DNA of 64,000 nt from Candidatus Thorarchaeota archaeon (GCA_963726195.1 CAVSBO010000016.1:96001-160000); one strand, 5' to 3'. Positions 3,491 through 58,666 are shown, numbered from the stretch's first letter. Notes: generated from the sequence alone by a model not told the origin. A program made the numbers and translations.

Positions 3491-6400
3491 TTGGTCTATA
3501 TCGAGAAGCTTGTGTGCAAGGGCTTCAAGTCATTTGGCCGGGACACCGTAACAATTACTCTCAGCTCTGGGTTCAACTGCATTGTGGGGCCAAATGGATC
3601 AGGCAAGTCGAACGTAATCGATGCATTACTGTTCGTCTTGGGACAACTGAGCGCAAAGACGCTCCGTGCGAATGTGTTTTCCGAATTGCTGTATTCTCCA
3701 CCGAAGCCTGACATGCCCCCCAAAGCCTCATCCGCTTTGGTCGAACTGCATTTCAATAACAAGGACAGAAAGCTAGAGATTGATGCAGACAAGGTCGTGA
3801 TAGAAAGACAACTGGATGAATCCGGAAAGTCTGTATGCCGCATAAATGGCAAGATGGTCACCCGGTCCTCTGTCATAGAAGTACTGGGGGGCATCGGAGT
3901 CGACCCAAATGGTTACAATCTGGTTCTGCAGGGCGAAATCGCCCAGATGGTCAAAGTCAATCCAATCGAACGCCGCAAGTTGGTAGAAGAGATTGCTGGC
4001 ATTTCAGCGTATGATGAACAGAAGGAAAAAGCACTCAAGAAACTGGCAGAGAGTGAAACGAATCTAGGCAAGGTCGAAACACAACTGCAAGAACGGCGAC
4101 GACAGACTTGAGCGTCTAGAATCAGAGAGAAAGGACGCGCTGCGTTATAGCTCCGTTCGTGATGGAATACAGCAAACCAGAATCGAGAGCCTCGCTTGGA
4201 CTATAATCAGAGGTGACAGCAGAAGCAAGACAATAGACGAGACTCTCGCGGAGCGAGCTGCAGATGCAGAAGGGCTCGCGAAAGAGCTCACCAAAGTCGA
4301 GAAGAATATGGCAAAGACTGAATCCGAAATCGAGGTGATAGAACAGGATATCGACCAAATCACTGGTGGGGATGCCTCGCGAGTTTCCGAACAGTACGGC
4401 GTGATGTCGGCCGAGGTTGATCACATCAAGGGTGGCCTCGAGCGCGCAAGAAACGACTTTGATAGGACCAAGCAGGAGAGGAATAGCCTCGAATCACAGA
4501 TTGATACAACTAAGGAACAGATAGCATCCAGTGAACAGTCCACAGAGGACAAGGAGAGGGAACTGGCCCGCCTTGAGATAGAAGTCAAGGAGTGCGCGGG
4601 CAGATATTGAGCGGCTCGAACAGCTGCAGGAAAAGGAGCAATCGTCATACTATGATACCACACGAGAACTCCAAGACTTCAACAATCAAATGGCCCACCT
4701 TGATGAGGCGATAGCTGATGTCAGGTCGACAATCAAGTCCGATAACAAGGAACTAGGGTTAGCGTATGAGGAAGTCCGCGATGCGGAGGATACTCTGAAG
4801 AACACCGAGACAGATTTGTCAGAACTGACAGTCATTGCTCCAGCGAGAACGCAGGAACTCCAGAAATCACAGGCAATGGAGGAAGAGAAACGGATCGAAC
4901 TCGAGAGTGTAGAGAAGCTGCTTGCCTCTGCGGAGGCTCAAGTGACTGAATCAGCGAAGTTGGTGGCTTCGACACGAGAAGAAATGATCAAGATACAGGC
5001 TCGACATGACGCGCTGAAAGAAGCAGAGGAAGCATTTCTGAAAAGACAGAGGGCATTGGCGAGGATACTCCAACTTCGTGACAAAGGTGAGATGGAGGGA
5101 ATCCTTGGAACAGTGGCAGAGCTCGGCACCATCAACCCAGATTACGGGACAGCACTAGAGGTGGCCGCGGGTAACAGGTTATCGCATATTGTAGTGGAAG
5201 ACGAAGATGTGGCTACTAGATGCATTGATGTCCTCAAGAAGGAAAGAATAGGGCGTGCATCCTTCATTCCTCTGGGCAGAATAAGGGCACGAAAGCCCGT
5301 CAAGGCTCCTAGCGGAAAGGGAATTATTGGCAATGCACTGGACCTGGTCAAGTTTGATTCAAAGATGCGGCCAGCGTTTGAATTTGTATTCTCAGACACG
5401 GTCGTAACAAAAGACTTCGAGACAGCGAAAGCAGTCAGTCTTAGTAAGCGGAGAGCAGTCTCGCTGGAAGGAGACCTAGTCGAGAGATCAGGCCTGATAA
5501 CTGGGGGATATTTCCACAAAGAAGCGAAAGGACTCTCGCTACAGGAACAGGACACAAGCCCTCAGGTCGTTACTCGCCTCAAGGGGCTCGAGGATATTCT
5601 GTCAGAGCTGCGACAGCAGGAGGAGCAATTAACGGACGGGAAGAAGGACCTCGACAGAGACCTTCAGGAACTTGCCAGACACAACTACAGGGAACGTATC
5701 GAAGTCGAAACACTCGAGCAGAAGCTTGCAGATAGAGAAGCCCGAGCGGAGAGTCTCGGAGAGAAGATCCGTAAGGCGAAAGTCACAATCGATGAACTGG
5801 AGAAGCAGATATCCGAACTGACGGCACGCGATGAAGAACTGACCAGTCAGCGTGACAAGATAAGGGAGCAGAGAGACCGCTGCAATGAGGCGCTTGCAAA
5901 GTCAGACACCGCTCGATTGAACCAAGAAATCAAGGATTTGAAGGAAGTCCTAGAACATCATAGAAGAAATCGTGAAGGCATTCAAAGGGATATCGCTTCG
6001 CTCCGGGTAGCGCTGGACGAGCGATATTCACCTAAACTGGCAGAACTTGTGGCCAGAACAGAATCGCTGGACTCGGTGTTACCAGGAATGGAAGGGGATG
6101 TACAGCTTTCTGAATCGGAACTCGCTGGGAAAGAAACAGAATTTCTCAAGCTGAGATCGGAAAGAGAGAAGATAGATACAGCCGTGAAGGACAAGCGGGT
6201 GCGTCAGCTAAGGCTCAAAGAGACTGTCAGGGACCTTAGGCTCAAGCAGGAAGAGATACGCGAAGCCCAGACATCGAACGAGAAGCTGTGTACCGACTTC
6301 AGGTCGAACGTTCTCGCCTAGAGAATGACTTAGTGGGATTCAAAGCCGAACTCGGTACCATCACTGAAGTGGATGCAGAGCTGGAAAAGAGAGCTGACCA

Positions 6401-7082
6401 GCGTGAGCTGACTGCTAAGGCAATCGAAGACTTGGGCGAGAAGATTAAGGAACTCGAGAGAGAACTTGAAGCGATGGGTCCGGTGAATCTGAAGTCGCTT
6501 ACGGACTATGACGCGGAAAGACAGACCTACGACGAGATAGCCGAGAAGAAGACTCAACTCGAGAAGGAGCACAAGGAGATTCTCTCGTTTATGGAAGAGA
6601 TTGAGAAGGAGAAAACTCAAAAGTTCCTTCAAGTCTATAACGAAATAGCAGACAACTTTTCCAAGGTTTTCGCAAAACTGTCGCCGAGCGGCGAAGCAAA
6701 TCTCATGCTTGAGAATCCCGAGCATCCTCTGATGGGGGGCGTAACTGTCAGGTCAAAGCCGGCAGGCAAGGAACTGGTTTCACTAGACGCCATGAGTGGT
6801 GGTGAAAAGACACTGACCGGGCTGGCATTGATTTTCGCTGTCCAGATGCACAGTCCTGCCAGCTTCTATGTATTTGATGAAATAGATGCAAACCTAGACG
6901 ATGTGAATGCTCACAACGTGGCCGTACTCATTTCGGAGATGTCCAGATCGTCCCAGTTCATAGTTGTATCGCTCAGAGATACCACTGTGCGTAAGGCAGA
7001 CATGCTTATTGGCGTGTCAAATCAAGATGGTATATCTAGGATAGTCGCCGTGGACCTGCAGGAGGTAGCGGAAACGGCTTGA
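3491..7082 (+). CDS. smc: Chromosome segregation protein SMC (three frameshifts at about 4105, 4590 and 6288, probably sequencing errors)
   Basis: GFKSF, GPNGSGKSN Walker A, coiled coils, hinge (GRASFIPL, GLITGG), MSGGEK signature, FDEIDANLD; split over four ORFs. Confidence 0.95.
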
Positions 7083-56698: not shown

Positions 56699-58666
56699 GG
56701 ACAGGGCACTAGCGCTCGGTGAGATACTCGAGCTGCTAGATGAGGAAGGGCTCGGCATCTCGCCTCTGAGACAGATTCTGAAGGAACTGGCTGACGAATC
56801 CAAGGGAATTGCACTCCCTGAGAAGACAGGTGTGGGAGGACGTCCGAAGCTGCTGTATCGCGCCATATCCGAGAGAGCCGTCCGCTCCTCACTTGCCAGG
56901 GCAGATATCGAACCCGAAGCAATTCGTGACGAACAACCTACTCTATATCGTCAGATACTAGAGCAGTCACTCGGCCGCTATGCGAACGTGCACCCTGAAG
57001 AAAGGAGGAGACTTTTCGCTGAGACGGCTCGGCGACTACGGCAAGAGAATCCTGCAGAGTCTCTTTCTACGCTTTGCACGATGGCTGAAGGAACGCTACG
57101 AAGAAGAGCTGGAATCGATGCGCAAGTGCATCAACCAAGGAAAGAAGAAGGATGCACAACGCCATCAGGAAATGCTTGCCCTCATGGAGGACGTATCAAC
57201 TCGGATATTCGATCGGCTTCTAGGAGTGCCTCGTAGAATAGTGATTGACAGACTCCGGTGTTGTGAGGTTGGCTGATGGGCCTTTCTTGCTCGCTAAAGA
57301 CAGGAATCAAGAAAGCCAAGCCAAACTTGACGAAGAGGTGACACGCAAGTACTTGGGCTACTCGATTCACGGTCAGTCTGTCATCGAGACTCTCAAGACC
57401 GAGAAGCCCGAGTTCCCGGTGCATATGGGCGGGACGGACGTATCCGTTCAACCAATTGGTCTCAGCGAGGTACTGCCTTGGAGCACAAGAGGGGCTGATG
57501 CCCAAATTCTGACAGCGGTCGGTGTGAGGTATGACATGTACAGACGAGTTCAGGATATCGAAAGATACCCCGACCCGAAGATGTTGGCCCAGTATGAGAG
57601 GCGACAGGCAATCGAGGAAGGACTGCTCATCCCGCCACCGGGCACAATAACATTCCCGTGGGACATGGAATCCAAGGTGAGAGAAGCTGCAATGGACCTA
57701 AGGCAATACAAGAAGGACTTTGAGCTCATGTTCGAAAAAGACCCTGCGTGCACCGTGCACTTCAGAGACGGCAGAATACTTCCACTTGAGCATCGGATGG
57801 CAGATGCCGTTCACGGCGGCCTCCACGGAGAGATTGTGCGGTACGCACTAAAGACTTTCAAAAACATAGTCAATGTTGTTGGCGCGGATGAGGGAAGAGT
57901 CTTGTACTGCGGGTACGTGAAGCGGCCAGGTGTAGATATCATTGCCGCACTTGTGGCTTGGTATATGGGATTTGGGTCTGCCCAAGAGGGTTCGAAATCT
58001 ATCGACCCTGAAATGACCCTTGAGCAGCTGCTCACTTACCCGGAGGGTGACGACCAAGTGATTGCTGAACTCTTTCTGGCATTGAAGGACACGCTTGGTC
58101 AGGGTGAGTTCCTAACCACGTTCAGGCTACTTCGAAGATTCCCGTCGCTGGAGGAGGACTACATCCGCTACTTCCCGCCTTCAACAAACAGGAAAGAATG
58201 GGAGAATCGGCTTTCGAGTTATCGACAAATGCTGGATGGACTGCCCGATGACACTACTGGCATTGACCTAATTGCGACACTCTGCGCCCGAGCAGCTGTT
58301 CTGTCCTTCTATACGAGTCTGACCAATCTGGACAGCCCCGGTTACTCCTCAGTACTATCGATTCCCCGACTTGAGATACTGATTCCCTACCCAGAGCTTG
58401 AGATGATGCTTGAAGGCAAGGGACACGCGCTGCGCGAACTTGACTATGTGAGAAGACTGCTAAGTCTGCTCCAACATCCGGGCGCGCTTGACCGATATCC
58501 GGACGCTCTCTTCTTCCAGCAGGAATCACCAAGAGTATTCTTGGCCCCGAGAACTATCTGCGAAGCGCACACTGCAGCCAAAGGGATTGCACTTGTATAC
58601 AAGGACGACATCCTGAACCTCTTGGTAAAAGAGGCGAAAATCCTCTGGAATTCTCGGGAAAGATAG
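56655..58666 (+). CDS. wHTH + NurA-like nuclease (frameshifts at about 57060 and 57243)
   Basis: N-terminal wHTH ending GGRPKLLY; NurA-like GGTDVS, FRDGRI, GYVKRP, ICEAHTAAK. Confidence 0.65.

Follow-up and report, generated by a model that had tools for sequence, protein, structure and literature searches.

The broken genes of the Candidatus Thorarchaeota assembly considered here (G000, an Asgard archaeal MAG of 19 contigs) are almost certainly the product of one-base long-read assembly errors at a few short words, not of gene decay. We propose that these are systematic consensus errors at AGCT, GTCTC/GAGAC and GCGGCAG, which very probably come from native base modification disturbing the long-read signal, with G000 itself probably being a long-read-only MAG.

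The frame breaks were placed within one 64-kb stretch of this assembly (the window) by tblastn, using as queries the ORFs of syntenic same-genus contigs (G001, G002, G003) with the HerA homologues P0001-P0005 added, after which a one-base repair was tried at each position to place the junction. This combination of orthologue-guided tblastn and repair scan located 12 frameshift junctions to 1-6 nt, given below, followed by candidates suggested by the logic of fusing adjacent ORFs.

4101-4108, + strand: smc frameshift 1, AG[A]CT, one base added; the protein-level optimum for the repair is 4101, 3 nt before AGACT
4596-4603, + strand: smc frameshift 2, GCGG[G]CAG, one G too many; orthologue repair
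6284-6287, + strand: smc frameshift 3, 1-nt deletion in or adjoining AGCT; orthologue repair
7185-7191, + strand: scpA frameshift, AGCT[G]AA, one base added; orthologue repair
20593-20597, + strand: gene of 671-680 aa (rqcH in the original prediction), one base lost at CAGCT; orthologue repair
32966-32972, - strand: gene of 480-507 aa (proS in the original prediction), AAGCT[T]A, one base added; orthologue repair
35285-35291, - strand: gene of 373-377 aa, AGCT[G]AA close to the 3' end; orthologue repair
40805-40811, + strand: gene of 241-257 aa, AGCT[G]AA; orthologue repair
42769-42774, - strand: gene of 356 aa, G[T]TCTC, true sequence GTCTC; orthologue repair
55725-55734, + strand: herA-like ATPase frameshift 1, AGCT[GA]GCT[G]; HerA homologues
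55795-55803, + strand: herA-like ATPase frameshift 2, AGCT[GA]GG; HerA homologues
56133-56140, + strand: herA-like ATPase frameshift 3, CTG[C]CCGC, which is GCGG[G]CAG on the opposite strand; HerA homologues
50153-50157, - strand: candidate AG[T]CT insertion linking ORFs of 232 and 129 codons; ORF-fusion logic only, without homologue
51015, - strand: candidate AG[T]CT insertion; ORF-fusion logic
57250-57254, + strand: candidate AG[A]CT insertion between ORFs of 193 aa and 473 aa 3' of herA; ORF-fusion logic only

Of the 12 placed junctions, nine belong to AGCT, GCGG[G]CAG accounts for two and G[T]TCTC for the remaining one. Within the listed intervals the frame change itself is narrowed, for the second to twelfth junctions, to 4598-4600, 6286, 7189-7191, 20596, 32966-32969, 35285-35287, 40809-40811, 42772-42773, 55729-55734, 55799-55803 and 56136-56138. 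An intact AGCT lies within 5 nt of eight of them and the ninth reads AGACT; the probability of at least eight out of 12 junctions being near AGCT by chance is 4.5e-9. The clustering at AGCT that the original prediction had described is therefore real, and AGCT also ranks first among 4-mers genome-wide. The same prediction had attributed the errors to this single tetramer, overlooking GTCTC/GAGAC and GCGGCAG, which are error motifs as well; what it had read as a ‘garbled GAGCTG’ in smc at about 4590 is actually of the GCGGGCAG class. The window copy of tnpB (9551-10754) has a 1-nt gap near 10424 whose association with AGCT is not clear, and the four copies of this tnpB/IS are just 86-88% identical, so that their gaps are not exactly placeable and the copies are of no use as an internal reference. 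A list, made ab initio, of window ORFs that overlap on the same strand was dropped because shadow ORFs made it too noisy.

With 1.7 Mb of same-genus genomes as the reference, 250 junctions came to light in the 1,257,170 nt of G000 that orthologues cover, or roughly one in every 5 kb of coding sequence. They comprise 191 insertions and 59 deletions and affect all large contigs (1.2-3.7 junctions per 10 kb). AGCT is found within 5 nt of 74 of the 191 well-placed junctions compared to 8.1 expected (p=3e-50), the highest rank in the 4-mer enrichment check that had been suggested beforehand. Longer words are also concentrated at the junctions: AGCTGA at 48 (0.86 expected); AGWCT, that is AG[A/T]CT where relatives have AGCT, at 26 (4.1 expected); GTTCTC, GT[T]CTC where relatives have GTCTC, at 29 (1.16 expected); and, in the residual junction set, GCGGGC at 7 (0.25 expected), with 6-9 junctions making up the GCGG[G]CAG class. 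AGCT-related junctions amount to 100/191, or ~52%, genome-wide, a smaller share than the 16 out of 21 earlier counted for the window; GTCTC/GAGAC takes ~15-17% of the junctions and GCGGCAG ~4%. This motif specificity is a direct observation. The palindromes GATC, CCGG, GGCC, GTAC and CGCG are at expectation at G000 junctions, CTAG is seen 3 times vs 3.35 expected, and homopolymers are not enriched, with just 3-6 junctions in runs of four or more. The two orientations are balanced (AGCTGA 33 and TCAGCT 24; AGTCT 15 and AGACT 14; GTTCTC 16 and GAGAAC 15). A genome-wide, reference-free ORF-fusion scan, in which TCAGCT, GGGCAG and CAGACT lead for +1 shifts, gives weak support, its enrichment being limited to ~2-fold because normal gene boundaries (GGAGG) dominate.

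We consider the following scenario. Native DNA would be modified at AGCT, GAGAC and GCGGCAG, the marks would disturb the raw long-read signal, and a caller or polisher untrained on them would insert or omit a base at those few percent of the sites that are most prone to error. At AGCT, A or T is added centrally (AG^CT), with the GACAGCT context favoured, G is added after AGCT and before A (AGCTA becoming AGCTGA), or a base is dropped at the site; GTCTC/GAGAC turns into GTTCTC/GAGAAC in the consensus, and GCGGCAG into GCGGGCAG. Indels are present at ~1.9% of AGCT, 1.1% of GTCTC and 3.4% of GCGGCAG sites, those at AGCT mainly in the AGCTA and GACAGCT contexts, with a worst-context rate of 4-6%. 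Since Type II methylation as a rule reaches nearly every site and only a few percent of the sites are affected here, a strong context or coverage dependence must be assumed. Phosphorothioate at GAAC/GTTC was considered as the cause of GAGAAC/GTTCTC and dropped, the true word in the relatives being GAGAC/GTCTC. A bulkier non-methyl modification, as a variant of the methylation reading, is a less likely source of the dominance of insertions.

Methyltransferase genes that might place such marks are present in G000, from which, together with the error pattern, we infer the modification and its chemical type. At least four belong to the SPPY (m4C-type) PF01555 enzymes, identified by the SPPY motif in the ORF.

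C3:854242-855021: SPPY-type PF01555 enzyme
C3:195694-196590: SPPY-type PF01555 enzyme
C7:120873-121730: SPPY-type PF01555 enzyme, broken
C13:101167-102459: SPPY-type PF01555 enzyme

One of these would probably be responsible for m4C at AGCT; of the two marks originally put forward for this motif, m4C is plausible in view of these enzymes and of archaeal precedent (PMC10609329). The enzyme at C3:195694 has orthologues of 57-75% identity in 8 of the 12 relatives from the family, and its matches in Thorarchaeota exceed 100; one candidate enzyme is likely a lineage-wide orphan methyltransferase. PDB sequence searches with three PF01555 enzymes returned generic beta-class matches only (CcrM, RsrI, MboIIA, DpnA, an N4-cytosine methyltransferase and PvuII), from which neither AGCT nor GCGGCAG specificity can be inferred, and the suggested search for an AGCT-specific methyltransferase found none assignable among those of G000. 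Nor could any of its enzymes be tied to GCGGCAG.

The candidate for GAGAC is G000:C17:62240-64267, which matches TIGR02987 at E=4e-76 over profile positions 11-521 of 523 (next family, 2e-13), scores 256.9 bits, under the curated cut-off of 353.5, and carries an NPPY motif. It has no cognate nuclease or C5 partner within 6 kb, its neighbours being an Arf/Roc-like GTPase, a longin-like protein, a GH116 glycosidase and cysS, and we thus regard it as an orphan. The Alw26I/Eco31I/Esp3I m6A family has the second A of GAGAC as its target (PMC4659465), and in GAGAAC that A belongs to the AA pair; m6A at GAGAC in G000 would probably be the work of this orphan family member. The observed/expected ratios in G000 are 0.99 for AGCT, 0.91 for GTCTC and 0.49, a strong under-representation, for GATC. 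The GTCTC ratio is 0.36 in G001 and G003, from which we conclude that restriction at GTCTC operates in the genus.

Let us assume instead that the caller or polisher is biased at these sequence contexts as such, so that unmodified DNA would give the same indels, a possibility to which we assign a low probability. The other palindromes at expectation argue against it, and to our knowledge the error contexts, which are abundant in unmodified-DNA training data, have not been reported as hot spots. It would be favoured by the extended contexts of the error-prone sites (GACAGCT, AGCTA), by the few percent of motif sites affected and by the published methylation errors for current pores being substitutions (PMC11610573, PMC11610603); the motifs, however, resemble restriction-modification targets (a 4-bp palindrome, an asymmetric 5-mer and a 7-mer), and one of them fits the specificity (PMC4659465) of a family to which a G000 methyltransferase probably belongs. 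Base modification remains our preferred source of the errors.

It is still less probable, and indeed very improbable, that the indels are real, with the motifs acting as mutational hot spots (for example, through nuclease cutting and imprecise repair) and the broken genes being true pseudogenes of a decaying genome. In the short-contig same-genus MAGs we find the orthologues of the broken genes uninterrupted, and full-length alignment is regained by adding or removing one base at the motif. At the aligned positions of nucleotide alignments, G002 of the same genus often has AG-CT and G-TCTC/GAG-AC, and for AGCTGA/TCAGCT dropping the inner G or C suits the orthologue better in 20 cases vs 4. The genes affected include core genes, smc and scpA, along with genes of the size of those for aminoacyl-tRNA synthetases; the flanks of the single indels have 60-95% amino-acid identity to the orthologues with no further lesions; the inserted bases are stereotyped, with 191 insertions vs 59 deletions; and, if real, indels at this density (about one in 5 kb) would inactivate about one-sixth of the genes. 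Since essential genes are affected, among them smc, scpA and those named proS and rqcH in the original prediction, while their orthologues are intact, we take the junctions for consensus errors, not mutations. The original prediction had likewise regarded the indels as assembly or basecalling artefacts in genes intact in vivo, in agreement with the intact orthologues, the one-base repairs, the essential genes and the concentration of the lesions on three short motifs, symmetrically on both strands.

The scenario of real mutation can draw on one truly decayed gene in the window, for a C5 methyltransferase, and on an island of accessory DNA at 47.6-59.6 kb.

53769-54515, - strand: sole PF00145 (C5 DNA methyltransferase) match of G000; its motifs are diverged and five stops lie in frame
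47610-59626: island of ~12 kb, without DNA match in three same-genus genomes, where its flanks are adjacent

The five in-frame stops and diverged motifs mark the C5 methyltransferase gene as a genuine pseudogene, and the mixed-type lesions of such pseudogenisation are found in the window for this gene only; outside it, each of the 12 placed lesions is a lone indel at one of the three motifs. The island also holds large unknown ORFs, the herA-like ATPase and its downstream ORF; a search for homologues covering the full length of its large minus-strand gene gave a single weak match, at 27% identity. No intact PF00145 enzyme, as an M.AluI-like m5C mark would require, is found in G000, and m5C at AGCT by the dcm-like gene of the window is ruled out by the decay of that gene, which makes m5C, the other mark originally named, unlikely. 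Lastly, programmed recoding by ribosomal frameshifting or transcriptional slippage at the motif words, for which the recurrence of motifs at frame changes is the one point in favour, is scarcely credible considering three unrelated motifs, shifts of both +1 and -1, the lack of a slippery run and the single-frame orthologues at the same positions in three same-genus genomes.

The errors of long-read origin proposed here have practical consequences. About one gene in six of G000 is split by error, which depresses the completeness estimate (88.9%), and in annotation or comparison of this Asgard lineage the errors would yield false pseudogenes and false ‘split genes’. G000 needs polishing before use; in the meantime, it is advisable to read through any break at AGCT, AGWCT, AGCTGA, GTTCTC or GCGGGCAG. 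As a hypothesis, the errors also indicate testable methylation motifs and candidate enzymes in an uncultured Thorarchaeote. Perhaps a three-motif Thorarchaeota methylome, composed of a lineage-conserved SPPY-type AGCT mark (probably m4C), an orphan GAG(m6A)C mark and GCGGCAG, is legible from the errors, a tentative picture that we judge to be a little short of evenly balanced. If true, it would extend the AGCT orphan mark of Nitrososphaerota and Methanomicrobiales to Asgard archaea.

Sequencing artefacts of this motif-specific sort are known. Dcm motifs (CCWGG) give consensus errors in nanopore assemblies of Enterobacteriaceae, where ~70% of ONT consensus errors fell in Dcm motifs when the models had not seen the mark (Wick et al. 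2019, PMC6591954), and with R10.4.1, the current nanopore chemistry, the methylation-induced errors described are substitutions (PMC11610573, PMC11610603). As in these cases, the residual errors of G000 sit on a few short organism-specific motifs and not on homopolymers, genes are broken or altered, and amplified DNA or short-read polishing is expected to remove the errors. Unlike them, the errors of G000 are single-base indels, mostly insertions, as seen by frame-change detection, which has substitutions outside its scope; and, where Dcm concerns Enterobacteriaceae, the organism here is an Asgard archaeon and the words hit are AGCT, GTCTC/GAGAC and GCGGCAG, with modification and platform being presumed. 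To call indels at one tetramer the ‘known signature’ of modified bases, as had been done for this DNA, is therefore an overstatement, the papers cited here describing general motif errors (PMC6591954) or substitutions (PMC11610573, PMC11610603).

The C17 enzyme resembles the Alw26I/Eco31I/Esp3I family (TIGR02987) in aligning with nearly the full profile and in having NPPY; the frameshifts by themselves lead to GTCTC/GAGAC, the core that the family shares, and the base added in GAGAAC is one or the other A of the pair that includes the methylated A. It differs from these type IIS systems in being under the cut-off and an orphan, with GTCTC unavoided in G000 (0.91). As for AGCT, orphan m4C methyltransferases of this specificity are recurrent and persistent in archaea (HG11, HG16 and HG19, in Nitrososphaerota and Methanomicrobiales), and GATC and AGCT methylation co-occur in the taxa surveyed (PMC10609329). 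By analogy, an AGCT modification in G000 is plausible: the motif is the same and unavoided (0.99), as an orphan enzyme predicts, and G000 has SPPY-type PF01555 enzymes, one of them conserved across Thorarchaeota.

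Translated ORFs of syntenic relatives were compared with the window by tblastn, paired collinear matches in different frames were taken as frameshift junctions, and each possible one-base deletion or insertion was tried, the repaired translation being scored against the orthologue. For the herA gene of the island at 47610-59626, database HerA homologues served as the reference in the same procedure. The closest genomes to the one under study (G000; 2.92 Mb in 19 contigs, GC 51%, estimated completeness 88.9%) are the wetland MAGs OWC5 (G002) and OWC3 (G003), plus a binchicken MAG (G001). 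The window, C16:96001-160000 of G000, is assigned to Candidatus Thorarchaeota by a conserved MutS-like protein. G002 shares 92-93% amino-acid identity with G000, DNA identity between the window and the three relatives is 70-81%, and contig C1 of G001 is syntenic with the entire window, 47.6-59.6 kb excepted. Twelve junctions were located to 1-6 nt, and three candidate insertions come from ORF-fusion logic.

Frameshifts in the window (square brackets, extra bases; placed by orthologue-guided repair unless stated otherwise)
4101-4108, smc frameshift 1, AG[A]CT
4598-4600, smc frameshift 2, GCGG[G]CAG
6286, smc frameshift 3, AGCT with one base lost
7189-7191, scpA frameshift, AGCT[G]AA
20596, frameshift, CAGCT with one base lost
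32966-32969, minus strand, frameshift, AAGCT[T]A
35285-35287, minus strand, frameshift, AGCT[G]AA
40809-40811, frameshift, AGCT[G]AA
42772-42773, minus strand, frameshift, G[T]TCTC
55729-55734 and 55799-55803, two herA frameshifts, AGCT[GA], against database HerA homologues
56136-56138, herA frameshift, CTG[C]CCGC, against database HerA homologues
50153 and 51015, minus strand, candidate insertions, AG[T]CT, ORF-fusion logic
57250, candidate insertion, AG[A]CT, ORF-fusion logic

An intact AGCT lies within 5 nt of eight of the 12 junctions, and a ninth carries AGACT. With a background of 0.043 per junction, eight or more would be expected with p=4.5e-9, so the clustering at AGCT that the original prediction described is real. 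AGCT is indeed the dominant error word but not the sole one: the lesion at 42772 represents a second motif, overlooked at first reading, and the ‘garbled GAGCTG’ at about 4590, formerly counted as an AGCT case, is actually one extra G within GCGGCAG.

The frameshifts are an artefact of the assembly, not a feature of the organism. Core genes are affected, and the flanks, one base aside, are 60-95% identical to orthologues that three other assemblies carry uninterrupted. The same bases tend to be inserted in a stereotyped way, and one lesion per 5 kb would knock out about one gene in six; all of this argues for artefact rather than mutation, and for genes that are intact in vivo as originally proposed. 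The one truly decayed gene of the window is a C5 methyltransferase (53769-54515, minus strand), whose damage is of another kind, with in-frame stops and degraded catalytic motifs. Elsewhere, a type I HsdM-like N6_Mtase gene with several in-frame stops (C8:191245-192060, minus strand) and a gene paralogous to that of the C3:854242 SPPY enzyme, with a stop or frame break (C7:120873-121818, minus strand), could reflect either artefact or true decay.

The decayed methyltransferase sits in the island of about 12 kb at 47610-59626, whose flanks are adjacent in the relatives and for which G001, G002 and G003 gave no DNA match; it resembles a defence island or an integrated element. The island also holds, at 47867-52839, a minus-strand chain of large ORFs of no known function, one of them weakly matching DUF87/HerA, and a HerA-like ATPase (55157-56611; 59-78% identity per segment to database HerA-like proteins) with ORFs downstream. 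A TnpB/OrfB_IS605 element with a Cas12f1-like TNB domain occurs in four copies, mutually 86-88% identical (43568-44788 and 9551-10754, both minus strand; C7:107733-108956; C18:12534-13730); compared with G002, the copy at 43.5-45.1 kb is inserted. Adjoining intact genes at 12351-15649 (minus strand) encode a flavoprotein (FAD_binding_2 and Succ_DH_flav_C) and an Fe-S/CCG-domain subunit, a pair resembling thiol:fumarate reductase or succinate dehydrogenase.

The same procedure, applied to all of G000 with 1.72 Mb from G002 and G001, gave 250 distinct junctions (191 insertions, 59 deletions) in 1,257,170 nt of orthologue-covered DNA, or one per 5.0 kb, and all large contigs are affected, at 1.2-3.7 per 10 kb. 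For 191 well-aligned junctions placed to within 4 nt, k-mers no more than 5 nt away were counted against ~38,000 control intervals from the same covered DNA. AGCT ranks first among all 4-mers, as the original prediction would have it (74 observed, 8.1 expected, p=3e-50), and enrichment is likewise seen for AGCTGA/TCAGCT (48 vs 0.86), GAGAAC/GTTCTC (29 vs 1.16) and AGACT/AGTCT (26 vs 4.1); once the AGCT-, GTTCTC- and AGWCT-type classes are removed, GCGGGC/CGGGCA/GGGCAG emerge (7 vs 0.25-0.36). Just 3-6 junctions fall inside homopolymers of at least 4, and the palindromes CTAG, GATC, CCGG, GGCC, GTAC and CGCG show no enrichment, all being at or below expectation. A genome-wide ORF-fusion scan, reference-free but noisy, also placed TCAGCT, CTCAGC, GGGCAG and CAGACT at the top for +1 shifts.

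In nucleotide alignments, G002 commonly shows AG-CT at the AG[A/T]CT sites of G000 and G-TCTC/GAG-AC at its GT[T]CTC/GAG[A]AC sites, so that AGCT and GTCTC/GAGAC must be the true words. For the AGCTGA class, removal of the inner G (for TCAGCT, of its C) agrees better with the orthologue in 20 cases, worse in 4 and equally in 32, so that the error is AGCTA read as AGCTGA; central insertions at AGCT prefer the context GACAGCT. Both genome-strand orientations of the error words are hit equally, as they should be if the artefact arises when double-stranded DNA is read. Few sites carry an indel: about 1.9% for AGCT, 1.1% for GTCTC and 3.4% for GCGGCAG, rising to about 4-6% in the contexts AGCTA and GACAGCT.

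Indirectly, we infer that base modification is a plausible and likely cause of the errors at AGCT, GTCTC/GAGAC and GCGGCAG, since all three are shaped like restriction-modification targets. Nanopore callers that meet marks outside their training are documented to accumulate consensus errors at such words, not at homopolymers, and Wick et al. found about 70% of consensus errors within Dcm motifs (PMC6591954). A caller bias unconnected with modification seems to us improbable; it retains a small share of our belief because R10.4.1 studies report methylation-related substitutions, not indels (PMC11610573, PMC11610603), and because only a few percent of motif sites bear an indel.

AGCT methylation, as originally deduced from the indels, thus stays plausible and is now joined by two further motifs, but its m5C form is unlikely because the lone PF00145 gene of the genome is the pseudogene in the island. 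The search for an AGCT-specific methyltransferase yielded no G000 enzyme assignable to that word. PF01555 genes are numerous, at least four with an N4-cytosine-type SPPY motif; one of these (C3:195694-196590, minus strand) has 57-75% identical orthologues in eight of 12 family relatives and >100 database matches at ≥58% identity, nearly all organism-named ones from Thorarchaeota or Promethearchaeota, and is a candidate lineage-wide orphan m4C enzyme. A survey of restriction-modification in archaea reports that orphan m4C AGCT methyltransferases persist in Nitrososphaerota and Methanomicrobiales, alongside GATC methylation (PMC10609329). AGCT is not avoided in G000 (observed/expected 0.99). GATC is strongly depleted in all four genus genomes (0.49-0.61), yet it is no error hot spot.

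For the second word, the gene inventory adds an independent line to the modification reading. A 676-aa NPPY enzyme with Eco57I, N6_Mtase and TaqI_C domains (C17:62240-64267; L195:6237-8267, minus strand) matches NCBIfam TIGR02987 over profile positions 11-521 of 523 (E=4e-76, below the curated cut-off; runner-up family, 2e-13). It is an orphan among genes for an Arf/Roc-like small GTPase, a longin-domain protein, a GH116 glycosidase and cysS, the GTPase and longin-domain genes being Asgard ‘eukaryotic signature’ genes, and 10 of 12 family relatives carry a homologue at 39-50% identity. Avoidance of GTCTC is seen in G001 and G003 (observed/expected 0.36) but not in G000 and G002 (0.91-0.95), which points to GTCTC-directed restriction within the genus and suggests that, judged by word counts, it may be lineage-specific. 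TIGR02987 groups m6A methyltransferases that belong to Alw26I/Eco31I/Esp3I systems; its members share the core GTCTC and methylate the second A of GAGAC (PMC4659465). The frameshifts of G000 had by themselves led to this very core as an error motif. The extra base falls within the AA pair of GAGAAC, either A of which may be the extra one, the pair containing the A methylated in the Alw26I/Eco31I/Esp3I systems.
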